Shown here in pieces: positions 4,145-37,140 of a stretch of DNA of 64,000 nt. Made by a program: the position numbers and the translations under genes. The stretch comes from an uncultured Christensenellaceae bacterium (GTDB taxonomy: Bacteria; Bacillota; Clostridia; Christensenellales; UBA3700). The stretch spans positions 96,228 through 160,227 of the forward strand of contig CAJUOU010000002.1 of the NCBI GenBank assembly GCA_910588545.1, in the 5' to 3' direction. Each line of letters starts with the position of its first letter. The first letter of the stretch is position 1. The notes beneath the pieces were generated by a model. That model did not search any database and had not been told where the DNA came from. It saw only the letters and a program-made list of their open reading frames with translations.

Positions 4145-5611
4145 TTAAATATCCATAATGTTAGATTTTATCTCTTCCTTAGTAGGTTTATTGTCCCCGT
4201 GTTTTACAAACAACATTACAATAAAAGCTATAAGGATATTTATCGACGCAAAAACAAACATAACATTATCCCCAAGTTTATCCATAAACAAACCTGCAAA
4301 GAAAGGTGCTACCGCTTGTGCTGACATAGATGCAACATAATAATATCCCGTATATTTACCAACGTTGCTACCCTTTGACATTTCGCAAACCATAGGTAAT
4401 GTATTAACATTTACGATAATCAAACCTATGCCTGCAAGAACAAAACAAATTCCAACTATATACGCCGTTTTGCTGTTCACAAATAAGCATGGGAAAAAGG
4501 CAATACTTGCAAGTGCAAAGCCAATCAATGTTGATTTTTTTCTACCTATCTTACCTGACATAAAGCCCACAGGGATTAGCGCCAACGCTCCGCCTAAGCC
4601 GTTTGCAAAGTTAATAAGTCCTACACCGGAGGATTCCATAAGCAATTTATCAGTTACATATACCGATAGATGCGAACGCACTGCATTGTACCCCATAAAC
4701 CAAAAGAAAATAGATGCCAAAATCAAAAGCAAACTTATTATTTTACCTTTTGATAGTTTTTCCTGCCCTTCGGTTTCCTCTTCGTCAATAACATTCCATT
4801 TGCGTTCTTCTTCATACCTTAAGTTTACAAATTTCTTTTCGTTAACTAACAACATATATCCTGCAAGCAACATATACATAAACATTACTAGTAACAAAAA
4901 CAATAACACAAATGAGCCGTAATCGGGGGCAAATAAGCTATATAAGCCTATTGATATAAATCCGCCTATACCACCCATAAAGTTCATAATCGCATTGGCA
5001 CCCGAGCGTAATGGTTTGATTGTAACATCGGGCATTAGCGCAACCACAGGGGCACGAAACGCAGACATTGTAACCAAAAGCACAAACAATACAATAATAA
5101 ACAGCACAAGCGATGTCGGATTAGCAATGGTATTTGTAATCGCCATTTTTACTTGAGCCGCATGAAAATCGATACTAAATTGTTCAAACAACGGACTTTC
5201 GGCATTAATAGTCTGATAAATCGGGTCTAAATATTTGCTGTCCAAATATCCTTTGGAAACTAGTTGGTCAATATTTTTTACGCCCATTTCGACAAGCTTG
5301 TTAAACTCGGTATTTTCAATAGCGATTAGCAACATTACAAGTATACCTGCAAGCAAAGTGCCTATCACAATAAAAGGCGTTCTTCTGCCAAAAACTTTGC
5401 CTTTTGACTTGTCGGATAAACTACCAAACAAAGGTAGCAATACTATAGCCAAAATATTGTCCAATCCCATTATAACGCCACGCCAAGTTGCGGATAAACC
5501 ATAAGTCCTGTCAAGCAATATAGGTACAGCAAAATCGTACACTTCCCAAAAAAGCATAACGATTATAAATGCTATTCCTACCTTAAAAACTCTTGCTTTA
5601 TCAAGTTTCAT
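4145..5611 (-). CDS. MFS transporter, GPH/SLC45-like sugar transporter
   Basis: About 12 predicted TM segments. Loop motif GRRTPFIVIGT is typical of GPH-type MFS proteins. Lies in the hexosaminidase locus. Confidence 0.7.
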   Translation of the reverse strand: MKLDKARVFKVGIAFIIVMLFWEVYDFAVPILLDRTYGLSATWRGVIMGLDNILAIVLLPLFGSLSDKSKGKVFGRRTPFIVIGTLLAGILVMLLIAIENTEFNKLVEMGVKNIDQLVSKGYLDSKYLDPIYQTINAESPLFEQFSIDFHAAQVKMAITNTIANPTSLVLFIIVLFVLLVTMSAFRAPVVALMPDVTIKPLRSGANAIMNFMGGIGGFISIGLYSLFAPDYGSFVLLFLLLVMFMYMLLAGYMLLVNEKKFVNLRYEEERKWNVIDEEETEGQEKLSKGKIISLLLILASIFFWFMGYNAVRSHLSVYVTDKLLMESSGVGLINFANGLGGALALIPVGFMSGKIGRKKSTLIGFALASIAFFPCLFVNSKTAYIVGICFVLAGIGLIIVNVNTLPMVCEMSKGSNVGKYTGYYYVASMSAQAVAPFFAGLFMDKLGDNVMFVFASINILIAFIVMLFVKHGDNKPTKEEIKSNIMDI

Positions 5612-7727: not shown

Positions 7728-9929
7728 TTAATAGAACAACTCGATTCCTATGATTTTGTCAATCACATTCCTTACGATTTCCGCATCTGCAGTGGTTATT
7801 TCGCCTTTGTTTATTACCATACTCGCTAGCTTTTTCTCCACACTTAAACTTTCGTATAATGCGTTGTCACTTGCTATTTCTCTCAAGTAGGACACATCGC
7901 TTGCACTTATCCTTCCATCGCCGTTCACATCCCCCAATACGGATAGGTATATCGTTTCGCCGTTTGTCTGTATACACCATCCTGTTCCTATTGCCATCTC
8001 TTTGCCGTTATCTGCAATAGCACTGTTTATGCCACTATCTACTGCTCCGTTTTGATAAATTGTTTTGCCTTTACTATCCGATAGTTGTAAATTGTTTTTA
8101 TCAATACCCAAAGGTGCTAGGTTATTTACAAATTCGTTTACCGAAGTGTTTGGTTTTATATTTCCCAATACATATCTTTCCAACTCGCTGTCATTGTAAC
8201 CGTGTAATTTGTCATTTTCAGTATATGTTTTCCTATAGCCGTTATCCAAATAAACAAAATCATAAATTGATTTTTCTTTCAAATCAAAAATTACTTCCTC
8301 ATTTTTCAAAACAGCAACTTTTTTGCTGTCTTTGGTAAAAAAGTATTTTGACGGATTTTGATTTCCGTTGCCGTAATAAGTATACCCCAATGTGAAAGTT
8401 TTAAATAAATTATAGTTATCATTCAAATCAACTTGAATATGAGCATCTTTACCTTCGCTTGTAAGCAGACCTACTACTTCAACTTTAATATCCTGCGGCA
8501 AACACAAATCTGCATATTCTCCGTTGGATGAGTTGTCTTTTATAACAGTTGCTCCGCTGATTTGCAGCTTGCCTGCGCGAATATTTAGTCCGCCAGCATT
8601 TTCAGTTGCATGATTACCTGTTATAGTAGTATTTTTAATTGCTATGATATCTGCGATTGTAGAAATACCTGCGCCGTATTTTGCAGTGTTCCCCGTGATT
8701 TCGCAATTACTAATGCTCATTAGGGTCATATTATCATCGTTATAAATTCCACCGCCGGATTCTGCACTGCTATTATTTTGAAACACACAATTATTTAACG
8801 TACAAGACGAATTTTGATAATTAAAAATTGCACCTCCATAATTGTTTGCAACATTGCCTACAAAATTGCAGTTTGTAATCGTTGTAATTCCGTTGGAGAA
8901 AATGCCTGCACCGCTCATCTCACTTTCATTTTTATAAAAAACACAATCGTTTATTGTAACTTTTGTATTTTCATGAAATACGCTCAATGCTCCGCCATTT
9001 AATTTTGATGTGTTATTGCTGAAAACAACATTGTTCATTTCAAAATTTATACTGCCTGCAGCCATAATAGCACCTGCTTCAGTAGAAGACTTGTTTCCTA
9101 TTATAATTGAATTGCTAATAGATGTATTGTTCGTACAATGAAATGCTGCACCGCTAGTTTTTGTAGCACAGTTATTCATAAATAAACCGCCATTCACGAT
9201 AAGTTCTCCTGCAGCACAAATCGCACCGCCGGCTGGAGCATAAATATTATCAATTATCATACCACCATTAAATGTCAATTTTGCATTAGATTGAATATAA
9301 ATACCACCGCCTGTATCCATACATGCTCCACCTGTGATTTTACCAAAAGGCAAAGCTCTTAAAGCATTTATTTGAGTTGCTAATGGTTTGTCTTTATTTT
9401 CCTCGTAAGTATTAAACATTAACTCACTGTCGTATTTACTATCTATGATTGTCAAAGTACCTCCATTTAAAACTGTAAAAATAGACCCATAGCTCATTTT
9501 TGTAGTTTGTTTTTTATCAAGCGTATGTCCGTTTAAATCAAATATAATTGTTGCGCCATGTGGCACTGTTATAGAGCCACTGCCATTATAAAAGCCCTTA
9601 CCTACACCAAAAAAATAAGTATCTTCATGTGCAACCCAATCACTGTCAAGCAATACTTTTATTTCTTTGTTATTACCATCAAAGCTTTTTTGTATGGCAC
9701 CACTCCATAAAGCAGCTTTTTCATCTGTTGTACCTGTTAAAATAACATCAGGTGTATAGCCAACATCGGTAGCTTTTTCACTATCTACTATCTCTCCACT
9801 GCTTTGTGTTTTTAAAGTTTCGGTTTGTAAAGCAATGTTTGTAGATGCAAACAAACATCCTACAACTAAAAGACAAGAAATTACTAATACAAAAAATATT
9901 ATTCCAACTTTTTTAATAATCTTTGCCAT
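7728..9929 (-). CDS. secreted surface protein with polymorphic-membrane-protein (Pmp) type beta-helix repeats and a C-terminal dockerin-like module
   Basis: N-terminal signal peptide. Many GGAI/GGAL/SGAG plus FxxN-type repeats (NNYGGAIFNY, LNGGALSVF, ESGGGIYN). C-terminus GDVNGDGRISASDVSYLREIAS matches the dockerin Ca-binding repeat; the second repeat is degenerate. GGAGG SD upstream of the ATG. Confidence 0.8.
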   Translation of the reverse strand: MAKIIKKVGIIFFVLVISCLLVVGCLFASTNIALQTETLKTQSSGEIVDSEKATDVGYTPDVILTGTTDEKAALWSGAIQKSFDGNNKEIKVLLDSDWVAHEDTYFFGVGKGFYNGSGSITVPHGATIIFDLNGHTLDKKQTTKMSYGSIFTVLNGGTLTIIDSKYDSELMFNTYEENKDKPLATQINALRALPFGKITGGACMDTGGGIYIQSNAKLTFNGGMIIDNIYAPAGGAICAAGELIVNGGLFMNNCATKTSGAAFHCTNNTSISNSIIIGNKSSTEAGAIMAAGSINFEMNNVVFSNNTSKLNGGALSVFHENTKVTINDCVFYKNESEMSGAGIFSNGITTITNCNFVGNVANNYGGAIFNYQNSSCTLNNCVFQNNSSAESGGGIYNDDNMTLMSISNCEITGNTAKYGAGISTIADIIAIKNTTITGNHATENAGGLNIRAGKLQISGATVIKDNSSNGEYADLCLPQDIKVEVVGLLTSEGKDAHIQVDLNDNYNLFKTFTLGYTYYGNGNQNPSKYFFTKDSKKVAVLKNEEVIFDLKEKSIYDFVYLDNGYRKTYTENDKLHGYNDSELERYVLGNIKPNTSVNEFVNNLAPLGIDKNNLQLSDSKGKTIYQNGAVDSGINSAIADNGKEMAIGTGWCIQTNGETIYLSVLGDVNGDGRISASDVSYLREIASDNALYESLSVEKKLASMVINKGEITTADAEIVRNVIDKIIGIELFY

Positions 9930-9951
9930 AATAAAACCTCCGTTTTTATCT

Positions 9952-9978
9952 TACATAGAATAAGTATATCTATGTACA
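9952..9978. repeat. left inverted repeat of inverton 1
   Basis: TACATAGAATAAGTATATCTATGTACA. Its reverse complement matches 10100-10126 at 26/27 positions. Contains an internal dyad ACATAGA-N9-TCTATGT. Confidence 0.9.
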
Positions 9979-10057
9979 AAATCGCGATTTTTCGGAAAAG
10001 TTTTTTAAAGTTTTTGTAGCTTTTTTGTAAAGCTATTACAAAATGTTTAATTAAATG

Positions 10058-10087
10058 TTGACAAAAGTTTACTTTTGACCCTATAAT
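10058..10087 (+). promoter_or_regulatory. sigma-A type promoter inside inverton 1
   Basis: TTGACA (10058-10063), 18-nt spacer, TATAAT (10082-10087). Confidence 0.8.
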
Positions 10088-10099
10088 ATACATATAATA

Positions 10100-10126
10100 T
10101 GTACATAGATATACTTATTCCATGTA
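10100..10126. repeat. right inverted repeat of inverton 1
   Basis: TGTACATAGATATACTTATTCCATGTA, the partner of 9952-9978. Confidence 0.9.
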
Positions 10127-10140
10127 CCCAAACTTTACAT

Positions 10141-10233
10141 TAATGGCAAATTTTCAACCCCAATAGTCCCGATTTTTGATAGGATTATTGCAGTGAACGA
10201 TACTTTTTGCCAACTTTAAACTTTACACAAAAA
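10141..10233 (+). other. conserved non-coding module, copy 1 (paralog of 14231-14319)
   Basis: The 40-nt core CCGATTTTTGATAGGATTATTGCAGTGAACGATACTTTTT matches copy 2 at 35/40 positions, at the same distance (~42 nt) from the right IR. Also shares the AAACTTTACA(C/T)AAAAA motif. Confidence 0.7.
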
Positions 10234-10236
10234 GTA

Positions 10237-10274
10237 ACACCCCAAAACACAATGTTTCGGGGTGTATTTTATTT
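10237..10274 (+). terminator. intrinsic terminator ending the OFF-state transcript of inverton 1
   Basis: ACACCCCAAA / TTT(C)GGGGTGT stem followed by ATTTTATTT on the plus strand. Confidence 0.6.
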
Positions 10275-10430
10275 GTATGGCGTATTTAAAATTGTATAAT
10301 TTTAAGAAATTTTACGGCTAAAAAATGTCTATATTAATTTATATTACTACTATCCTTTTCAATTTTTATTTATATATTCTATTTGATAAACAAGTGCAAT
10401 TTTTAATTAAACATATAATTTATAGCAAGC

Positions 10431-10460
10431 AAAAAAGCCATTCTATTGAATGGCTTTTTT
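10431..10460 (-). terminator. bidirectional intrinsic terminator after the 1154-aa adhesin gene
   Basis: GCCATTC/GAATGGC stem flanked by A6 and T6 runs. Confidence 0.7.
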
Positions 10461-10523
10461 AATTAGTTATGCTTTTTACCTTTTTGTTTTTTAGTGTTTG
10501 TTTGCGTTTCGTTTTGGTTGTTT

Positions 10524-13500
10524 TTATTTACGCCTTTTCTTTTTATTCAATTTGCTATTAGGCTTGCTATCTTCATCAATTTTATCAGTGTCCACACCAT
10601 CAGCCGGCGTTATTTGATTTTGTAGCTTTTTAACCTTTTTTGCTTCGCTTTCTTTTAATGCGTAAAATAATATTCTTTCTTGCGGAGCTTCCAACACACT
10701 CAAGTTCAAAACATCATTTTCCTTTATTACAAATGTCCAATCTTTGTAACCTACCTTGTAGTTATTTACTATCGTTCCTCTTACATTTACTACTTCCTTT
10801 GGTTTTATATCCTCGGTATTGGTATTTGTCGCTCCGTTGTTTTCGCTTGCTGCTTGTTGGTTGTTTGCGGCATACTGTGCATAAGGTATTGCTTGTTGTG
10901 GAGTATTTTTATTTTTCTTTACTACTATCAATATTATTATCAACAACAATATAAATATTATCATAAAGATAAATATTGCTATTAATATCCACCACATATA
11001 CGGAGGCATATTTTTTAGTGTTTCTATTACACTATTCATTCCGCTATCCGTATTACCATTACTTCCACCATTCGGTTTGCCGTCAGTTCCGTTGTTATCG
11101 TCCTCGCCGTCGCCACCACTTGGGTTAGGGTTTACCTCTGTTTTAAAGCTGTATGTTTCCGTCTCGTCAACTAGCTCTCCGTTGTATTTTAAAAACACAC
11201 TGCCCTTATACTCATTTTTTACTTTCAAGGAGATTTGGTAATTTGTATCATACTTTAGCGTTGCAGTTGGCAATATTACATTGCCTATTATCTGCCCGTC
11301 TTTTACTTGGTATATTTCGTAATCAAAATACTTTTCTATCTCACTTTTTTCGTCAGATAATAGCGTTGGTCGTTTGTTTCCCGTTCCGTTTTGCCATCCG
11401 CTTATCTCAAACTCCAGCGTTTGTATATCCAAAGTTATTGTATATGTCGTGTTATCTCTATCCTCCCACACTACATTGTCTACTTCTCCGCCATTTGCTG
11501 TGTTTACTCCGTTTTTAAACGCTATTTGTATGCTATACTTTCCTGCTTTTGTAAACTTGTAGTTTTCGTCTACTACATTGCCGTCTACTGTTATTTCAAA
11601 GTAGCTCTTCCAATTTGTCGGCATATTGGCTACAGCACTTAACCCAAAGCCTTCTGCATCAAATATGTTTACTTGGTCTGCTTTTGGCTTTCTTATCTTT
11701 AAGCTTTCTATCTCATAATCAAAGGTATCTTCTCCTACTATCATAAAGTCGTCCAAACCACTTTGCAATCCTACCAACACTTTATATCTTCCTACATTTG
11801 TCGGTGCTCCGCTCAGTGGCGTACCGTCTGCTGTAGTGTAGCTTATTACCAAGTTACTTGCTGTCAATCCTCCGCCTGCTACATTTAGCTCTACAGCTTG
11901 TGACAAACCATTGTATGTAAACTTATTATTCTTTAAGCTTACCTCTACTTTATTTATTACCGACCCTGTTTGGAATACTTCCGATACTGAGTTTTCCTCA
12001 TTTCCATCTACTACAAATATACAGTTAGTGTTGTTAAATCCTATTGTATTTGTCGTAAATATTGCTTGTATATAATATGACTTTATTTCACTTATATCAT
12101 TTTCTGCAAATATTTGCTCTAATGTTACTTCATCAGTCAAATCACTCTTTCTAAAATACTTGTATTCTATTGCATTAGCTAAGTTTTCCGCTACTTGTAA
12201 TCTTGGTATTGGTAGCGTTATATCCCCTATTGTCACATTCTTTTTTGTCCATGATACCGCTACTTTCTTTTTGGTTATCTTCCAATTATGCTTTAGTTGT
12301 GGTATATTTGCTAGTTCCGCACTCGTATATGTTTTGTAGTTAGGGTCACTGCCTGTAAAATCAATTACACTTGCGATATAATCTCCTACTGCGGACTTAG
12401 CATTATTGTCATACACTGCTGTTAAAAAGGACGGTAGTCCAGAGGCTATCTCTACCTTTTGGTTTTGACCATTATATTCAAACTCGCTTTGACTCCACGT
12501 GACTTTGCTAAAATCTATTTCTGCCTTGTTTATGGTTATTTTTATCCATCGGACTGTATCGCTTTCCAAATGGTCGCTATCTGTGGTATCCGCAGTTCCT
12601 CTAAATCTTGGTTTTCTAAAATCTATTACTTCCTGTTTTTCGGTTTCCGTCCAACCGTATTTTAAAGCATCTTGCTCTACCAATGCAATTATTTTATTTG
12701 TCCAACTCTCTTTTATCTCTACCTTTACCCAATACTCTCCTGCGTTTTCGAATGCTTTAGTACTGTCGGGATAAGCAAGTTGAATAAACTCGTTATCTGA
12801 CTCATACAAATTTTTGTCATACCAAGCAGTATTGTTGTTTGTCTTTACAATTTCACTTAATGTTTGTGCTGTTGCATTATATGTTGTCTCCAAATCTTGG
12901 GGATTTTGCACTCCGTTTTCCAAGCCTCTTAGTATTTCGCTTAAATTTACATGTATTGCAGGGCGGACACCTCGCTCATTTGTTATACCCACATTAATCC
13001 ATCTACTAGCATCTGTACAAGTGGAATCAATATCGGAAAAAGCATATCCCCAACTATAATTATTATGATGAGCAGAACGTGTCCATGCTGTAGTAATCCC
13101 TTTTGATGCTATTTGCTCAGGCGACAATTTCCATCCAGATTCTACCAAAGTTCCATTGGAATAGTTTCCGCCAATTTCATAGACACTAGGTATCCAAATA
13201 TAGTCTTTACCCCAGTCGCTATATTTAATACCATCTACTGCATAATCGACTTCATACCCCCCGCCTGTATTAAATTGAGGTTTCCAATCAGGATAGTTGC
13301 TGTTTAGCGCATCATTTCCATAATCATAGGTACTAAACCCAAGTCTCATTGATTGTAGTTGTTGGTATTTAATATACTGCGGCTGAACTAAATATTTTGT
13401 AGCAAAATCGCCTTCGATAAATTGAGACATTTCGTTACTTGACAAAAGAGTATTTCTCAAAGTGCTGCTACTGTACATATTATTACCTTTCGATGCAGAA

Positions 13501-13988
13501 CCGTTTGTATAGAACTTGGACAATTTATACGAATCTGCTAAATATAAAGTTACAACAACATCTTCTTTGGAATAAAAATTTATATCGGTTAAAGTTACAG
13601 ATGTAACTATCCATTGATATCCACCGAGAGTAACAACTAAACCTGTTTCAGAACCAACTTGCGTATTTATAGTAGTAGCATTAACTAAATAAGTTGTTGT
13701 ATCCATATCAGGATTAATTTTATATACATGTTTTTTTACATAATCAGTCGGATTTTCTTTATTAAATAATTTTTCTTTCAAATTTAAAATTGCAAAATTA
13801 TTAAAAGACTTATTAACATTATCATATAATTCAGCACCATTCGCAACTTGAATAGCAGAGCTTGGATTTGATAAAGCCAATGCCTGTTTTGGAAAAATAA
13901 AAATACTTGCAATAAGACTACTAAATAGTACTATCATAAATGTTAACATTACTATAAATAGATACGATTTTTTTATGGTTTTCTTCAT
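10524..13988 (-). CDS. large type-I membrane surface protein/adhesin with DUF6273-like N-terminal domain, MBG-type Ig-like repeats, one C-terminal TM helix and a ~150-aa cytoplasmic tail
   Basis: Signal peptide. GVRPAIHVNL motif (DUF6273-like). MBG-like repeats (FEYNGQNQKVEI...VGDYIASV; FTYNGLSQAVEL...VGRYKVLV). G/N/D-rich linker. TM helix MWWILIAIFIFMIIFILLLIIILIVV followed by KKNKN and a basic tail ending KKKRRK. Confidence 0.75.
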   Translation of the reverse strand: MKKTIKKSYLFIVMLTFMIVLFSSLIASIFIFPKQALALSNPSSAIQVANGAELYDNVNKSFNNFAILNLKEKLFNKENPTDYVKKHVYKINPDMDTTTYLVNATTINTQVGSETGLVVTLGGYQWIVTSVTLTDINFYSKEDVVVTLYLADSYKLSKFYTNGSASKGNNMYSSSTLRNTLLSSNEMSQFIEGDFATKYLVQPQYIKYQQLQSMRLGFSTYDYGNDALNSNYPDWKPQFNTGGGYEVDYAVDGIKYSDWGKDYIWIPSVYEIGGNYSNGTLVESGWKLSPEQIASKGITTAWTRSAHHNNYSWGYAFSDIDSTCTDASRWINVGITNERGVRPAIHVNLSEILRGLENGVQNPQDLETTYNATAQTLSEIVKTNNNTAWYDKNLYESDNEFIQLAYPDSTKAFENAGEYWVKVEIKESWTNKIIALVEQDALKYGWTETEKQEVIDFRKPRFRGTADTTDSDHLESDTVRWIKITINKAEIDFSKVTWSQSEFEYNGQNQKVEIASGLPSFLTAVYDNNAKSAVGDYIASVIDFTGSDPNYKTYTSAELANIPQLKHNWKITKKKVAVSWTKKNVTIGDITLPIPRLQVAENLANAIEYKYFRKSDLTDEVTLEQIFAENDISEIKSYYIQAIFTTNTIGFNNTNCIFVVDGNEENSVSEVFQTGSVINKVEVSLKNNKFTYNGLSQAVELNVAGGGLTASNLVISYTTADGTPLSGAPTNVGRYKVLVGLQSGLDDFMIVGEDTFDYEIESLKIRKPKADQVNIFDAEGFGLSAVANMPTNWKSYFEITVDGNVVDENYKFTKAGKYSIQIAFKNGVNTANGGEVDNVVWEDRDNTTYTITLDIQTLEFEISGWQNGTGNKRPTLLSDEKSEIEKYFDYEIYQVKDGQIIGNVILPTATLKYDTNYQISLKVKNEYKGSVFLKYNGELVDETETYSFKTEVNPNPSGGDGEDDNNGTDGKPNGGSNGNTDSGMNSVIETLKNMPPYMWWILIAIFIFMIIFILLLIIILIVVKKNKNTPQQAIPYAQYAANNQQAASENNGATNTNTEDIKPKEVVNVRGTIVNNYKVGYKDWTFVIKENDVLNLSVLEAPQERILFYALKESEAKKVKKLQNQITPADGVDTDKIDEDSKPNSKLNKKKRRK

Positions 13989-14033
13989 TTTTATTTTCTC
14001 CTAATAGTACACTTTATATCAAATGAAACATTT

Positions 14034-14061
14034 GTACATAGAATATATATAATCTATGTAC
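14034..14061. repeat. left inverted repeat of inverton 2
   Basis: GTACATAGAATATATATAATCTATGTAC. Its reverse complement is identical (28/28) to 14185-14212. Internal dyad ACATAGA-N10-TCTATGT. Confidence 0.95.
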
Positions 14062-14142
14062 ATTTAGGAGCATTTTTCAAGCAATAAAATTAAAGTTTTG
14101 GTATAAATTAGTTAAAGTTCTTACAAAATGATTAGTTTAATA

Positions 14143-14172
14143 TTGACATTACTTTACTTTTAATCTTATAAT
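14143..14172 (+). promoter_or_regulatory. sigma-A type promoter inside inverton 2
   Basis: TTGACA (14143-14148), 18-nt spacer, TATAAT (14167-14172). Confidence 0.8.
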
Positions 14173-14184
14173 ATAACTGAAAAA

Positions 14185-14212
14185 GTACATAGATTATATA
14201 TATTCTATGTAC
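14185..14212. repeat. right inverted repeat of inverton 2
   Basis: GTACATAGATTATATATATTCTATGTAC, the perfect partner of 14034-14061. Confidence 0.95.
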
Positions 14213-14230
14213 TTTTTTTATCCTTTTATT

Positions 14231-14319
14231 TTATGGTAAATTGCAAGTTAATGCCGATTTTTGACGGCATTATTGCAGTGAACGACAATTTTTATATACT
14301 TCAAACTTTACATAAAAAA
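14231..14319 (+). other. conserved non-coding module, copy 2 (paralog of 10141-10233)
   Basis: Core CCGATTTTTGACGGCATTATTGCAGTGAACGACAATTTTT. Hairpin TAATGCCG-AUUUUUGA-CGGCATTA. Followed by CAAACTTTACATAAAAAA. Confidence 0.7.
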
Positions 14320-14320
14320 T

Positions 14321-14358
14321 AGCAACCCGAAAATTATATAAATAAGGTGCTGTTTTTT
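14321..14358 (+). terminator. possible weak terminator ending the OFF-state transcript of inverton 2
   Basis: AGCA(A)CC / GGTGCT short stem with a large loop, followed by GTTTTTT. Confidence 0.35.
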
Positions 14359-14464
14359 ATATTCGAAATTTTCGTTCAATGCAATTAGACATATTTAGGC
14401 TTAAAATTAAACCGAAAACTGCTTTTTAAGCAAAATATTTATACTACAGACGGCTTGGTTAAAT

Positions 14465-14650
14465 AAAAAAATAAGGCATATACCTTAAAGATATATGCCA
14501 AAAACGCAAATAGCGTGTAGTACCGCTCAACCGAAAGAAAACTATTTGAAAACCTCGTTCTTCGAGGTGGGTTAGCTACCTGATACCGCTGTCTTCCCCT
14601 GCCATAACCTAAAAGGTCGAGGGCGTGACATTGAGTACCACAACTCGCAG
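14465..14650 (-). ncRNA. candidate ~185-nt structured small RNA, class not identified (6S-like size and architecture)
   Basis: GC-rich island in an AT-rich intergenic region. TATAAT -10 box on the minus strand (14662-14657). Strong intrinsic terminator (GGCATATA/TATATGCC, 14475-14499, plus U-run). 5' segment GUGGUACUCAA can pair with 3' segment UUGAGCGGUACUAC. Internal hairpin ACCUCG-AAGAA-CGAGGU. Only a 19-codon ORF without an SD. Confidence 0.55.
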
Positions 14651-14808
14651 TCCCTTATTATAAATGTGGTTACAAAATGCAATTTCCTTTCAAATCTTGC
14701 AGTTATCCTACAACAATAGTATAACACATTTGAATGGTCATTACAATACCCTTTTTAAATTTTAATGTAAAAAATTTCCTAAATTAATGTTTAATAAACT
14801 TTACATTT

Positions 14809-26810: not shown

Positions 26811-26828
26811 TTAGTAAATTAAATTTTG

Positions 26829-27017
26829 ATGCTAATAGAGGAGCAATCAGCAATAGTATGTCCGCCAAATGGTATGCAATTACCGACAGGCAGAAAGGGT
26901 ATGATTGCCGAGGTCTTAATCATATTGCAGTGGTTAAGGTTGGGTATAAGGCTAAATCCTTATAACTGTCATCTTAGATGGAGTACTATTATGCTAGCGG
27001 TAAAAATGCTTTTTATT
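26829..27017 (+). promoter_or_regulatory. lysine riboswitch (L-box) aptamer
   Basis: L-box hallmarks AUAGAGGAGC...AGUA, GAAAGGG...UUGCCGAGG and AACUGUCA...UGGAGUACUAU. Lies upstream of lysine/DAP pathway genes. Confidence 0.85.
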
Positions 27018-27044: not shown

Positions 27045-27173
27045 AATATTCAAACATAAATTTCAAGCAAATTATATGTATAAGCAGTTTTACAAGCATG
27101 TTACAATCGGATAAATCAAAAAATTATTTATCCGTTATAAATTAGATTTTTATTTTTATTCATGGAGGCATAT

Positions 27174-28172
27174 ATGAAAAAATTCAATGTTGCAGTTGTT
27201 GGTGCTACCGGTATGGTAGGCAACAAATTTTTGGAAGTTTTAACTGAAAGACAACTTCCTGTGGAAAATTACTATCTTTTTGCTTCAAGCAAAAGTGCGG
27301 GTAAAGTTATCGATTTTATGGGCAAACCTCACACTGTTATCGAACTTACTAACGAAAATATCGCAAAATACCCTGTAGATTTTGCTTTATTCTCTGCAGG
27401 CGGCTCTACTTCTGCAAAATTCGCACCTGAATTTGTAAAATGCGGTGCTATCGTTGTAGATAACTCTAGCCAATGGCGTATGTATGACAATGTTCCGCTA
27501 GTAGTTCCGGAGGTTAATCCCGATGATATAGATTGGAACGAAGGTATTATCGCAAACCCTAACTGTTCTACTATTCAAGCTATGGTTGCCCTAAAACCTC
27601 TTCACGATAAATATACTATCAAACGTATTGTTTATAGTACATACCAAGCTGTATCAGGTGCAGGTGTTGCAGGATATAACGATTTGGTTGAGGGTGTAAA
27701 AGGTGCAGAACCTAAAAAATTCCCATACCCTATCTTTAATAACGTGCTACCTCACATAGACGTATTCTTGCCAAGCGGCTACACTAAAGAAGAAGAAAAA
27801 ATGATGAAAGAAACTCAAAAGATTCTTGACAAAAACATCAAAGTTACAGCTACAACTGTCAGAGTGCCTGTATTAAACAGCCACAGTGAATCTATTAATG
27901 TAGAGTTTGAAAAACCTTGCACTTTGGAAGGTATTTACGATGCTTTGAGAAATGCTGAAAGTGTTATTTTGTATGATGACCCAGCAAACTTGAAATACCC
28001 TATGCCTATTATTTCTAGCGGCCACGACGAAACTTATGTAGGAAGAGTAAGAATTGACGAGACTGTTCCAAGCGGTTGTAACTTATGGGTAGTTGCAGAT
28101 AACATCCGTAAAGGTGCTGCAACAAATGCCGTTCAAATTATGCAAAAATTAATGGAAAAGAAATCTAAATAA
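27174..28172 (+). CDS. asd: aspartate-semialdehyde dehydrogenase
   Basis: VAVVGATGMVG NAD(P)-binding motif and active-site NPNCSTI. Start moved to ATG 27174, downstream of a GGAGG SD (the ORF track starts at 27162). Confidence 0.93.
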   Translation: MKKFNVAVVGATGMVGNKFLEVLTERQLPVENYYLFASSKSAGKVIDFMGKPHTVIELTNENIAKYPVDFALFSAGGSTSAKFAPEFVKCGAIVVDNSSQWRMYDNVPLVVPEVNPDDIDWNEGIIANPNCSTIQAMVALKPLHDKYTIKRIVYSTYQAVSGAGVAGYNDLVEGVKGAEPKKFPYPIFNNVLPHIDVFLPSGYTKEEEKMMKETQKILDKNIKVTATTVRVPVLNSHSESINVEFEKPCTLEGIYDALRNAESVILYDDPANLKYPMPIISSGHDETYVGRVRIDETVPSGCNLWVVADNIRKGAATNAVQIMQKLMEKKSK

Positions 28173-28189
28173 TAATCGGAGGTACTATT

Positions 28190-29068
28190 ATGTTTTCAGG
28201 CGTTGCTACTGCTCTTATCACACCGTTCAACTTTAAGGGTGTGGATTTTGAAGCTTACGGCAGACTAATAGAAGACCAAATTGCAAACGGAATAGATGCT
28301 TTGGTTGTGCTTGGCACAACAGGCGAGGCATCAACAATGTCACATGACGAAAAAGTGGCTACTATCAAATTTGCAATCGAAAAAATAAACAAAAGAGTAC
28401 CTGTTATAGTAGGTACAGGTTCTAACTGCACCGCAACTGCTGTTGAAAACAGTATCGAAGCCGAAAAATTGGGTGCAGACATGTTGCTTGTAGTTACACC
28501 ATACTATAACAAATGCACACAAGAGGGGCTTATTGCGCACTACTCTCAAATAGCAAGTGCAGTAAACACTCCTATCATCGCATACAATGTTCCTGGCAGA
28601 ACGGGCGTAAACATTTTGCCAAAGACAATCAAAGCCCTAGCAAACATTCCTAATATTGTTGCAGTAAAGGAAGCAAGTGGCAACATAAGCCAAATAGCAA
28701 GCGTTGTTGCCGAAGTACGCGGCAGTGATTTTAAAGTTTACAGCGGCGACGATGGTATTATTTTGCCTGTAATGAGCTTAGGAGCAGATGGTTTAATAAG
28801 CGTTGCAAGCAATGTCATCCCTAAACAAATGGTAGATATGGTAAAAGCTGCTAAAGAGGGAGATTTAAAAACAGCTCAAAACTTGTTTTTCAAATATCGT
28901 CCTTTGATGGAAGTAATGTTTTGCGAAACAAATCCTATTCCTGTAAAATTCGCTTGTTCAAAGTTAGGTTACGGTGAAAATTTGCCAAGGTTGCCTTTGA
29001 CACCTATTTCAGAGACAGGAAAAATAAAAGTATTGGACGAAATGTATAACGTCGGATTGATAAAATAA
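28190..29068 (+). CDS. dapA: 4-hydroxy-tetrahydrodipicolinate synthase
   Basis: DapA pattern ALITPF...GTTGE...YNVPGRT...VKEASG. Confidence 0.93.
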   Translation: MFSGVATALITPFNFKGVDFEAYGRLIEDQIANGIDALVVLGTTGEASTMSHDEKVATIKFAIEKINKRVPVIVGTGSNCTATAVENSIEAEKLGADMLLVVTPYYNKCTQEGLIAHYSQIASAVNTPIIAYNVPGRTGVNILPKTIKALANIPNIVAVKEASGNISQIASVVAEVRGSDFKVYSGDDGIILPVMSLGADGLISVASNVIPKQMVDMVKAAKEGDLKTAQNLFFKYRPLMEVMFCETNPIPVKFACSKLGYGENLPRLPLTPISETGKIKVLDEMYNVGLIK

Positions 29069-29091
29069 CAAAATTACTCTCGGAGGAGTTT

Positions 29092-29862
29092 ATGACTAAT
29101 GTATTAATATGGGGTATCGGTGGCAGAATGGGTCGAACTTTGCTTGAATGCCTTAACAAAAACAGCAATGCGAACGCTATAGGCGGTGTAGATAAATTTG
29201 CAAATAAAGCAGATTTTAATATCCCAATCTTCAAAAGTGTTTCCGAAATCAATGTAAAAGCAGACGTAATTATAGATTTTTCACGTGCGGAAGCAATTTA
29301 CGATTTTTTGCCATACGCTAAGGAAAATAAAATTCCGGTTGTGCTATGTACCACAGGTTATAGTGAGCTTGACTTGGACTATATTTCCGAAATGTCAAAA
29401 GAAATACCGCTATTTAAATCCAGCAATATGTCAATAGGTATTAACTTGCTTATCGATTTAGTTAAAAAAGCAACTAACCTTCTTGGCGAAAACTTTGATA
29501 TCGAACTTATCGAGCAACACCATAATGTAAAAGTTGATAGTCCATCGGGCACTGCACTTTCTATCGCAAATGCCATAAATGAAGAAATGAACAACACTTT
29601 AGAATTCAAGTTTGGCAGACACGATAGCAATGAACGACGCAAAAAAAATGAATTGGGTATTCATGCCGTAAGAGGTGGAACAGTTGTCGGCAAACATGAA
29701 GTACTATTTCTTGGAAATGACGAAATTATTACAATTAAACACGAGGCAAGCTCAAAAGCTGTTTTTGCCGAAGGTGCTGTAAAGGCTAGTATTTTTATGA
29801 CAAGCATAAAAACTCCGGGTATTTACAATATGAATGATTTAATTCAATCAACTGAAAATTAA
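29092..29862 (+). CDS. dapB: 4-hydroxy-tetrahydrodipicolinate reductase
   Basis: DapB signature ELIEQHHNVKVDSPSGTA. Confidence 0.9.
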   Translation: MTNVLIWGIGGRMGRTLLECLNKNSNANAIGGVDKFANKADFNIPIFKSVSEINVKADVIIDFSRAEAIYDFLPYAKENKIPVVLCTTGYSELDLDYISEMSKEIPLFKSSNMSIGINLLIDLVKKATNLLGENFDIELIEQHHNVKVDSPSGTALSIANAINEEMNNTLEFKFGRHDSNERRKKNELGIHAVRGGTVVGKHEVLFLGNDEIITIKHEASSKAVFAEGAVKASIFMTSIKTPGIYNMNDLIQSTEN

Positions 29863-36617: not shown

Positions 36618-37140
36618 ATGACATACAAAAATTAGTTGGAAGAATGGCTAAATAATTTCATTAAAATTTCAAACAAACAACGAACTTTTGAGAGTTACAA
36701 AAACATTATATACTTGCAAAATTATTAATGATTTAGTAATTCCTGAAAATGTTACAAAGATATCGAGTTTTGCCGTCTGCAATAACGACGAGCTAACTAA
36801 CATAACACTAGCAGATAATGTAACAAAAATAGAATATCAAGTTTTTTTATAAGTGCACATGACTATCTGACATTAACCATAATAAAGTGGCTTTGATAGA
36901 GAGTTATGCATTTTATGAATGTGAGAATATAACAAATATTACAGTTTCCGATAGTCTAAAAAGTATTAGACATTCAGCATTTCAAGATTGTATATGTGTG
37001 GAAACAATGAATTTATGTAGCAAAAACTACTAAATCAATAATATAAATAAAGACTATGAGTGGAATTTTAGAACATATAATAATTATGCAGAAATTTTAC
37101 TGATGTTAGACTTGATATATACGACAACTCTGTCGAAGCA
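36618..37140 (+). pseudogene. decayed gene patch: a tyrosine-integrase N-terminal remnant fused to fragments of a BspA-type leucine-rich-repeat protein
   Basis: MTYKN*LEEWLNNFIKISNKQRTFESYKNIIYLQNY* (SAM-like integrase N-terminal pattern with an in-frame stop). Followed by LVIPENVTKISSFAVCNNDELTNITLADNVTKIEYQVF and ESYAFYECENITNITVSDSLKSIRHSAFQDC, interrupted by stops and frameshifts. Confidence 0.65.

Follow-up and report, generated by a model that had tools for sequence, protein, structure and literature searches.

Two probable promoter invertons of an uncultured Christensenellaceae bacterium belong to a large family of surface-protein switches with a candidate trans-acting tyrosine recombinase

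Two short segments bounded by inverted repeats, at 9951-10127 and 14034-14212 of a 64,000-nt stretch of contig CAJUOU010000002.1 (assembly GCA_910588545.1; this whole stretch is hereafter ‘the window’) from an uncultured Christensenellaceae bacterium, each stand ahead of a gene for a large secreted protein and carry a predicted promoter. Do these elements—here switch 1 and switch 2—invert in nature, which enzyme would flip them, and how far does their family reach? An initial annotation, made from the letters of the window, had described them as members of one family that share a recombinase core site, differ in the spacer at its centre, and probably depend on an enzyme encoded elsewhere. Public assemblies revealed both orientations of switch 2 in the same species, at least 24 switches of this kind in roughly that species, and a candidate tyrosine recombinase outside the window. 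We consider it quite probable, taking the whole explanation including the enzyme together, that both elements are promoter invertons that act as phase-variation switches.

The four inverted repeats sit where the initial annotation had placed them. Those of switch 1 are 27 nt long and differ by one mismatch between arms: the gene-proximal copy with its core site (9951-9977) reads TTACATAGA-ATAAGTATA-TCTATGTAC and the distal copy (10101-10127) GTACATAGA-TATACTTAT-TCCATGTAC, its outer arm holding the mismatch. Those of switch 2 are 28 nt long and perfect, the distal copy (14185-14212; GTACATAGA-TTATATATAT-TCTATGTAC) being the exact reverse complement of the gene-proximal copy with its core site (14034-14061; GTACATAGA-ATATATATAA-TCTATGTAC). 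Within each switch the repeats are 150 nt apart, start to start, and enclose a 123-nt interior (9978-10100 and 14062-14184, plus strand). Every repeat is itself a dyad, with 9-nt arms, GTACATAGA and TCTATGTAC, around a centre of 9 nt in switch 1 (the N9 class) or 10 nt in switch 2 (the N10 class). The pattern ACATAGA-N8-11-TCTATGT has three exact matches in the window, as compared to 0.00 expected from 100 shuffles, and allowing up to three mismatches over the 18 arm bases returned the same four sites only (0.02 expected). The repeats, the internal dyads and both spacer lengths are thus confirmed as real features of this DNA.

The arms are identical and the interiors homologous, with 77% identity over 86 nt between the two switches (10005-10090 versus 14090-14175) and recognizable kinship to the interiors of the wider family described below, in line with the proposal of one family with a shared core site. 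Each interior contains a predicted promoter, TTGACA-18-TATAAT, that matches the consensus at 12 of 12 positions on the plus strand (switch 1: 10058-10087, with -35 at 10058-10063 and -10 at 10082-10087; switch 2: 14143-14172, with -35 at 14143-14148 and -10 at 14167-14172). Since the target genes lie on the minus strand, both promoters point away from them and both switches are OFF in the window. Each element is therefore a short segment bounded by a pair of inverted repeats, for which zero are expected by chance, and its predicted promoter faces the adjacent gene in one orientation only.

That such segments invert was visible in natural populations. The exact 1154-aa protein encoded next to switch 2 was absent from the record searched, so the orientation of this switch was read via the neighbouring genes, in ten listed same-species assemblies that carry the window’s exact 311-aa neighbour. 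Seven of these (L282-L287 and L291) hold switch 2 OFF, as in the window; the other three (L288, L289 and L290, on contigs of 235, 81 and 59 kb from different samples) hold it ON, the interior being the exact reverse complement and the promoter directed toward the 1154/1155-aa gene. Between L288 and L282, the 179-nt switch is 100% identical on opposite strands within 5.9 kb of collinear flanks, and the more distant orthologue L214 shows the same flipped switch between flanks collinear with those of the window. An N9 switch was likewise found in both states, ON in L116 and OFF in L217, ahead of the same 1151-aa gene. ON-state family members are present in genomes (L116, L146 and L184), and in ON-state copies the predicted promoter faces a ribosome-binding site (RBS) and an open reading frame (ORF). 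Comparison of assemblies thus establishes inversion itself, at switch 2 and at an N9 switch, as the initial annotation had proposed. These ON/OFF pairs do not place the crossover, the repeats of switch 2 being perfect and the N9 pair coming from different strains.

Assemblies also carry marks of the switches at their ends. Metagenome contigs very often start or stop at or inside a switch (L196, L198, L199, L220-L261, L295 and others); in 14 of the 54 metagenome loci, the break falls no more than ~110 nt from the gene-proximal repeat. Mixed orientations would have this effect, and so would repeats of any kind. Contig L253, with 96% identity to the window, at first resembled an ON copy; it carries the flanking module D2 (see below) on both sides, marking it as a fold-back join, and was left uncounted.

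How many such switches exist? We scanned one genome per species (GTDB representatives) with the pattern ACATAGA-N8-11-TCTATGT-N110-140-ACATAGA. This returned at least 104 loci, ~84 of which are true paired sites with the same 150-nt geometry; the remainder are chance matches in unrelated phyla plus one tandem repeat. Per genome, the counts are lower bounds: at least 24 switches in the metagenome-assembled genome (MAG) CANSGN (SRR15634022_bin.6), at least 21 in MGBC121002, a sister species labelled ‘uncultured Christensenella sp.’, at least 5-6 in each of three other mouse-gut MAGs, and at least 1-3 in each of the MAGs from rabbit, goat and other Clostridia. In housekeeping DNA, CANSGN shares 95-97% identity with the window’s species, so its count applies to roughly that species, and the suggestion of a larger inverton regulon is borne out. 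With metagenome and assembly loci added, the set grew to 126 unique switches (114 N9, 12 N10), most of which precede paralogous lipoprotein-like genes and are nearly always OFF.

The unit occurs many times in one genome, its copies sharing ~85-94% identity. In the window’s clade, the unit spans ~430 nt (window 9844-10322) and includes signal-peptide codons, the switch and D2, so the family grew by joint duplication of gene and switch. In the Joint Genome Institute (JGI) metagenome collection, a pattern specific to the ON state of the window’s clade had no match, and a broader pattern returned 54 loci, mostly OFF. In the public assembly collection, over 500 blocks contain marker proteins of the window. 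Neither the switch nor D2 matched an Rfam family, even at E<=1, and a literature search found no publication on invertons in this lineage. A phage-borne branch of the family was considered and rejected: viral contigs gave 87 loci with a 16-base dyad, all of them single, unpaired and attributable to chance background.

The genes behind the switches share a common plan. Switch 1 stands 22 nt from the start of a gene at 7728..9929 (minus strand; RBS GGAGG at 9937-9941, minus strand), whose 733-aa product is a secreted, lipoprotein-like surface protein with the signal peptide MAKIIKKVGIIFFVLVISCLLVVGC. Pfam returned a weak Chlam_PMP repeat and a sub-threshold dockerin for this protein, NCBIfam a POMP_repeat, and its N-terminus is common to dozens of switch-linked paralogues. 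The gene behind switch 2 (10524..13988, minus strand; RBS AGGAG at 13998-14002, minus strand) encodes a 1154-aa secreted protein with the signal sequence MKKTIKKSYLFIVMLTFMIVLFSSLIASIFIFPKQALA; it matched no family in Pfam or NCBIfam, and its paralogues and orthologues stand behind N10-class switches. Across the family loci, the first ORF past the gene-proximal repeat nearly always encodes a large protein of 540-1200 aa, with an RBS and ATG 22-26 nt beyond the repeat in the N9 class and 44-48 nt beyond it in the N10 class. N9-class products begin with a conserved lipoprotein-type signal, MAKIIKRAGIIFFVLVISCLL-x-GC; in dozens of paralogues the lipobox signal reads MAKIIKR...(L/I/V)xGC, and each has a switch of its own at a distance of 22-26 nt. 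N10-class products begin with MKKTIKKSYLFI...ALA-LS. ‘Surface protein’ therefore seems a fair label, and ‘adhesin’, as the 1154-aa gene product had been called, lacks domain support.

On the side away from the gene, every switch is joined by a conserved module that had been overlooked in the initial annotation and that we call D2. In switch 1 it occupies 10128..10275 and comprises the blocks CTTTACAT, CCGATTTTTGA, TTATTGCA and AAACTTTACA, followed by a terminator with a strong hairpin at 10237-10265, called on the minus strand. The D2 of switch 2 (14213..14365) has the same conserved blocks and, by eye, a weaker hairpin with a T-run at ~14321-14365; the terminator scan called none in this copy. 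The two copies are 80% identical (10164-10247 versus 14249-14332). In an alignment of 60 non-redundant copies, the blocks proved invariant across species, with CTTTACAT beside the repeat, and the terminator hairpin kept its pairing despite sequence change. A second hairpin, with apparent compensatory changes between the window copies, was discarded, as it is not conserved in the sister species and RNAalifold kept the terminator hairpin only. Among units with a recognizable D2, 55 of the N9 class are OFF and one is ON; in the N10 class, three are OFF and two ON.

As D2 always lies away from the gene, the OFF-state promoter reads into it. At the least, D2 brings the OFF transcript to an end and insulates the switch against the upstream gene, and at switch 2 a convergent 6S RNA candidate is protected in the same way. 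This candidate (14516-14708, minus strand) matches positions 1-187 of the 187-position 6S/SsrS model with 40 bits, below the gathering cut-off of 46.4 (E 1e-5), and has a fold z-score of -3.5; it is flanked by the 311-aa gene and by a terminator at 14475-14499 and points toward the OFF-state promoter of switch 2.

The conserved D2 blocks could serve further ends, be it as binding sites for an accessory or bias factor, as parts of an OFF-state RNA or, in the window’s clade, as a weak gene-directed promoter. The last of these would correspond to a promoter-like site, TTGGCA-18-AATAAT with a TG, on the minus strand at 10213-10184, which faces the gene and is weaker than the invertible promoter. 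In the same clade, D2 contains AATGGCAAAT (10143-10157), which has the same sense as the start-codon region of the family, ATGGCAAAG, and CTTTTTGCCAAC (10203-10214), which could pair with AATGGCAAAT or with the start region of the mRNA; on the other strand, the CTTTTTGCCAAC block is the -35 element of the TTGGCA-18-AATAAT site. The AATGGCAAAT and CTTTTTGCCAAC blocks are absent from the D2 of the sister species. A bolder idea, which we hold to be improbable, is that each switch has two outputs, the OFF promoter yielding a terminated D2 RNA of ~170 nt, such that the number of OFF switches would set a family-wide RNA dose or occupy a shared DNA-binding factor. If true, the at least 20 near-identical D2 copies per genome could couple the switches to one another, for instance by limiting the number of surface proteins that are ON or by biasing the recombinase to OFF. 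In the fimS switch, flanking sequences bias FimE toward OFF.

What kind of site is the shared core? Aligned from outer to inner arm, the N9 site reads GTACATAGA-A-T-A-[A/C/T]-[G/A]-T-[A/T]-[T/A/G]-A-TCTATGTAC. The inner arm is nearly invariant and the outer arm tolerates change, in the window’s clade a G at position 7 on the D2 side and a T at position 1 on the gene side. Between partner repeats, mismatches fall at outer-arm positions 1 (65 cases) and 7 (42 cases) and almost never in the inner arm. At the first spacer position, 17 of 114 pairs are mismatched, as compared to 3 of 798 cells (114 x 7) at spacer positions 2-8; many copies are paralogues, so these mismatches are not independent events. 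The pattern fits a central exchange region that would need identity between partners and, together with the inverted 9-bp arms, is in keeping with a core-type site for a tyrosine recombinase. The arm gap of 9 or 10 nt could correspond to an overlap of 7 or 8 bp with a single additional base on either side.

The spacers themselves had been described as asymmetric, with their difference seen as a barrier against recombination between the two switches. As for asymmetry, this needs qualification for the N10 centre, A-TATATATA-A, which is asymmetric only at its two end positions; the inner 8 nt are palindromic, so directional information resides in the flanking bases only. As for the barrier, no hybrid of N9 and N10 repeats occurs among the 126 unique switches. 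A length mismatch would be expected to prevent productive exchange, and the window’s two neighbours are probably protected from each other. Against a wider barrier stand three observations: in CANSGN, 19 of the 24 switches carry the identical spacer ATAAGTATA; same-spacer switches occur in tandem, 3.3-3.4 kb apart, in L123, L175 and L269-L272; and in L285 (ERZ14651323 NODE_114, from position 4259 onward, equivalent to window 14034), the sequence follows the window at 99.5% identity precisely up to the outer edge of the gene-proximal repeat of switch 2 and then continues with another D2-type module and guaB in place of the 1154-aa gene. This last structure would be the expected remnant of site-specific exchange between two N10 switches, or it may be a chimeric join in a contig of 4x coverage; four further places similar to it were reported among the matches. 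Recombination between same-class switches thus probably happens, and the spacer barrier is not a general rule of the system.

Whole units can also be lost by another route, a fourth observation against such a rule. L266-L268 and L271 lack one tandem switch-plus-gene unit, with a junction in D2 that falls between the terminator and the AAGTTGGC block; homologous recombination of the direct-repeat modules, and not exchange at the core site, is the likely cause. The same strains differ downstream of the recombinase locus introduced below, where L269/L270/L272 (10870-14355) have a lipoprotein gene of ~970 aa together with its switch and L266/L267/L268/L271 (10875-11047) do not. In the strains lacking the unit, the leftover switch has no lipoprotein gene behind it and precedes a RarA/MgsA-like gene at a distance of 160 nt.

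Which enzyme acts on these sites? The window itself encodes no intact recombinase, as had been noted: among 49 proteins (ORFs of at least 90 aa judged real), Pfam recognized no Phage_integrase, Resolvase or transposase domain, the proteins being housekeeping or unannotated and including ValRS, ArgRS, YchF, EngA, SecDF and the dap operon. The dead integrase trace noted at 36618 is real. This N-terminal tyrosine-recombinase fragment (36618..36728, plus strand) is interrupted by an in-frame stop at codon 6 (MTYKN*LEEWLNNFIKISNKQRTFESYKN) and shares 13 of 30 residues (43%; BLASTP E=1e-7) with P0130, the recombinase described next, from residue 1. The region from 36618 to 37130 is decayed, with out-of-frame pieces after the fragment that by eye resemble a leucine-rich-repeat (LRR) surface protein (IPENVTKISSFAV...LTNITLADNVTKIEYQVF), and no family core site lies near it.

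In 10 more distant genomes, an ORF of 303-325 aa with tyrosine-recombinase motifs adjoins a family switch within a few hundred bases, and in three of them it ends at most 3 nt from the repeat or overlaps it; an eleventh genome has such an ORF 2 kb from a switch. The four ORFs checked all contain PF00589 (93-110 bits) and the SAM-like N-terminal domain PF14659. A protein search returned thousands of ~303-aa relatives, and those at 75-99% identity share a locus of the order GH123 - Metallophos - PI-PLC-X - recombinase - Metallophos. At this conserved chromosomal locus lies P0130, a 304-aa tyrosine recombinase with a complete catalytic set of the R-K-H-R-H/W-Y type (R142, K184, H247, R250, H273 and Y283). 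It is encoded 2 kb from switches of the window’s type, whose repeats and promoter TTGACAAAAGTTTACTTTTGACCCTATAAT equal those of switch 1. Near the corresponding locus of a sister species, L264/L265 (15713-16927) encode a 742-aa protein with TIR_2 and LRR_5 domains that is apparently unrelated to the switches.

P0130 belongs to contig CARAPM010000002.1 of MAG GCA_948940675.1. Another contig of the same MAG, CARAPM010000003.1, matches the window over the two stretches compared, with an identity of 100.000% in one of 5.9 kb and 99.966% in the other of 8.8 kb. As one MAG carries both P0130 and near-identical stretches of the window, the window’s genome very probably encodes P0130 as well, elsewhere and outside the window. 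The likely flipping enzyme, judged by this gene context, is most likely P0130 acting in trans, which agrees with the trans-acting invertase of the initial annotation. P0130 scored 21 bits against the FimB/FimE-type NCBIfam invertase model (cut-off 222), 72 against XerA (220), 64 against XerC (335) and 48 against XerD (330), and so fits no curated NCBIfam family. The nearest solved structure is the Tn1549 integrase (E 2.4e-19), which aligns with residues 119-298, the catalytic domain only.

We propose that P0130, encoded on another contig, would bind the two 9-bp arms of each 27/28-bp core site, pair two sites 150 bp apart, and exchange strands within the 9- or 10-bp centre, thereby flipping the 123-nt segment with its consensus, sigma-A-type promoter. 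In the ON state, this promoter would read through the gene-proximal repeat and the RBS into a large secreted-protein gene, a lipoprotein gene in the N9 class. In the OFF state, it would read into D2 and its hairpin terminator, leaving the gene devoid of a strong promoter. The window’s switches would then be two of at least 24 units in the species, each with its own paralogous surface-protein gene and most of them OFF; the system looks like one of combinatorial surface variation.

Several points weigh against this proposal. Switch 1 is OFF in all three assemblies that span it, and no ON assembly of it was found. Short-read assemblies may in principle mis-join at perfect 28-nt repeats, and the gene-directed, promoter-like site in D2 could make the OFF state leaky. 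What ties P0130 to the sites is gene adjacency in other genomes and shared membership of a binned MAG. The serine-recombinase motif Y-x-R-x-S-[ST]-x-x-Q was absent from the ORFs of the 84 family loci in a regular-expression search, the rest of the genome not having been searched. Finally, tyrosine recombinases usually have central regions of 6-8 bp, shorter than the 9-10 bp seen here, and with two lengths side by side one enzyme may not serve both.

The last of these points leads to the most serious alternative, namely that two enzymes share the work, one acting on the N9 sites of the lipoprotein genes and a second, related or not, on the N10 sites of the ~1150-aa genes, with the shared arms reflecting common descent or similar DNA-binding domains. 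Several data are compatible with such a division. In C. difficile, RecV does not account for all switches, some of which require other recombinases (PMC5903667). The N9 and N10 classes are distinct sub-families, with interiors that are 77% identical and with different gene families; the two coexist in at least three genomes (the window’s, CANSGN and MGBC121002) without forming a hybrid inverton; and their ON frequencies differ, with 3 of 10 assemblies and 2 of 5 units in the N10 class against 1 of 56 units in the N9 class. Yet the arms are identical in both classes, and all recombinase relatives above 75% identity whose context was read sit at one syntenic locus, so they are orthologues and not paralogues. 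XerCD acts on sites with central regions of 6-8 bp; given this range, a spacer difference of 1 bp does not by itself demand a second enzyme. We regard such a division between two enzymes as possible but rather unlikely.

We deem it very unlikely that a serine invertase of the Hin/Gin/Mpi type, or some other unrelated recombinase encoded elsewhere, flips the switches while the adjacent tyrosine recombinase is coincidental or otherwise employed. A near-palindromic site of 27/28 bp is about the size of hix and gix, the N10 site is an almost perfect palindrome around a central AT, and in B. fragilis a serine master invertase serves 13 loci (PMC5903667). However, the 84 family loci that yielded no serine-recombinase motif include 11 with an orthologue of the tyrosine recombinase, 10 of them with the gene beside a switch; the near-absence of partner mismatches extends over seven of nine spacer positions, beyond a 2-bp core; and no enhancer-like element was identified, albeit in the absence of a rigorous test.

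It is scarcely credible that the units are a mobile or duplicated promoter cassette with terminal inverted repeats, akin to a miniature inverted-repeat transposable element, whose ‘inverted’ forms are independent insertions or assembly artefacts: the units are indeed multi-copy and ~85-94% identical within a genome, many metagenome contigs break at or inside them (as at any repeat) and at least one contig, L253, is a fold-back artefact, but at one locus with 97.8% identical flanks three independent long contigs carry the segment as its precise reverse complement (100% identity over 179 nt), the switch 2 locus exhibits neither presence/absence polymorphism nor target duplication, the repeated unit includes downstream signal-peptide codons as expected for duplication of gene plus switch and not for transposition, and no transposase is associated with it.

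The reading of the switches as promoter invertons flipped in trans by P0130 would make them a large system of a familiar kind of phase variation. By analogy of logic, their closest kin appears to be the mpl family of Mycoplasma penetrans, then the RecV system of Clostridioides difficile and then the Mpi system of Bacteroides fragilis. The mpl (P35) family comprises 38 surface lipoprotein genes over several loci, most with their own invertible promoter and each turned ON or OFF independently, and candidate tyrosine recombinases are encoded nearby and not at each switch (PMC2268961, citing Horino 2003). The present system likewise has at least 24 genes, mostly with a lipobox signal peptide and each with its own 123-nt promoter segment, and states differ from locus to locus, which amounts to multigene promoter inversion of the mpl type as a resemblance of function. 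It differs in its hosts, Clostridia MAGs labelled Christensenella from mouse and rabbit gut, and the features that set it apart are a full 27/28-bp dyad core in each repeat, D2 with its terminator at every switch, and two spacer-length classes.

In C. difficile, the gene for the tyrosine recombinase RecV lies apart from the sites at which the enzyme flips several short regulatory segments, one of them ahead of a cell-wall protein gene (cwpV; others concern flagellar genes, cmr, pdcB and more; PMC5903667). Both are systems of Firmicutes in which a single tyrosine recombinase—here a candidate—acts in trans. The seven C. difficile switches differ in regulatory logic, and their inverted repeats are mostly unrelated (PMC5903667), in contrast to the dozens of switches with one core sequence and one architecture found here. 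The serine master recombinase Mpi of B. fragilis inverts at least 13 scattered promoter invertons with shared repeats and generates combinatorial surface variation (PMC5903667; PMC2268961). Unlike Mpi, the present candidate is a tyrosine recombinase, and the targets are single large protein genes as opposed to the polysaccharide operons of Mpi.

The fimS element of Escherichia coli is also a promoter inverton flipped by tyrosine recombinases, FimB and FimE, as would be the case here with the candidate. Sequences outside the fimS repeats influence switching bias, and alongside this stand the conserved one-sided external module and the strong OFF bias of the present family. Unlike this family, fim has only one locus, with 9-bp repeats and with its recombinase genes alongside, and P0130 lies far below the FimB/FimE cut-off. 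The Tn1549/Tn916-family integrase (PDB 6EN0, 6EMY and 6EMZ) aligns with P0130 in the catalytic domain only; unlike that integrase, P0130 (~304 aa, SAM-like N-terminal domain) is encoded at a conserved place in the chromosome, devoid of a transposon context.

Elsewhere in the window, a lysine riboswitch (26828-26996, plus strand; 88 bits) was recognized upstream of asd-dapA-dapB (27162-29862).

Together, the switches represent a sequence-defined surface-variation regulon in a widespread, uncultured lineage of gut Clostridia, with one core site, at least 24 targets and a named candidate enzyme. The site pattern allows the ON/OFF state of each surface protein to be read from metagenomes, and the 9- and 10-nt centres within identical arms provide a natural test of the limits that spacer length and identity place on recombination. 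The switch units also constitute a systematic source of fragmented assemblies in this lineage, explaining assembly breaks as well as differences between strains by gain, loss or rearrangement at these loci.

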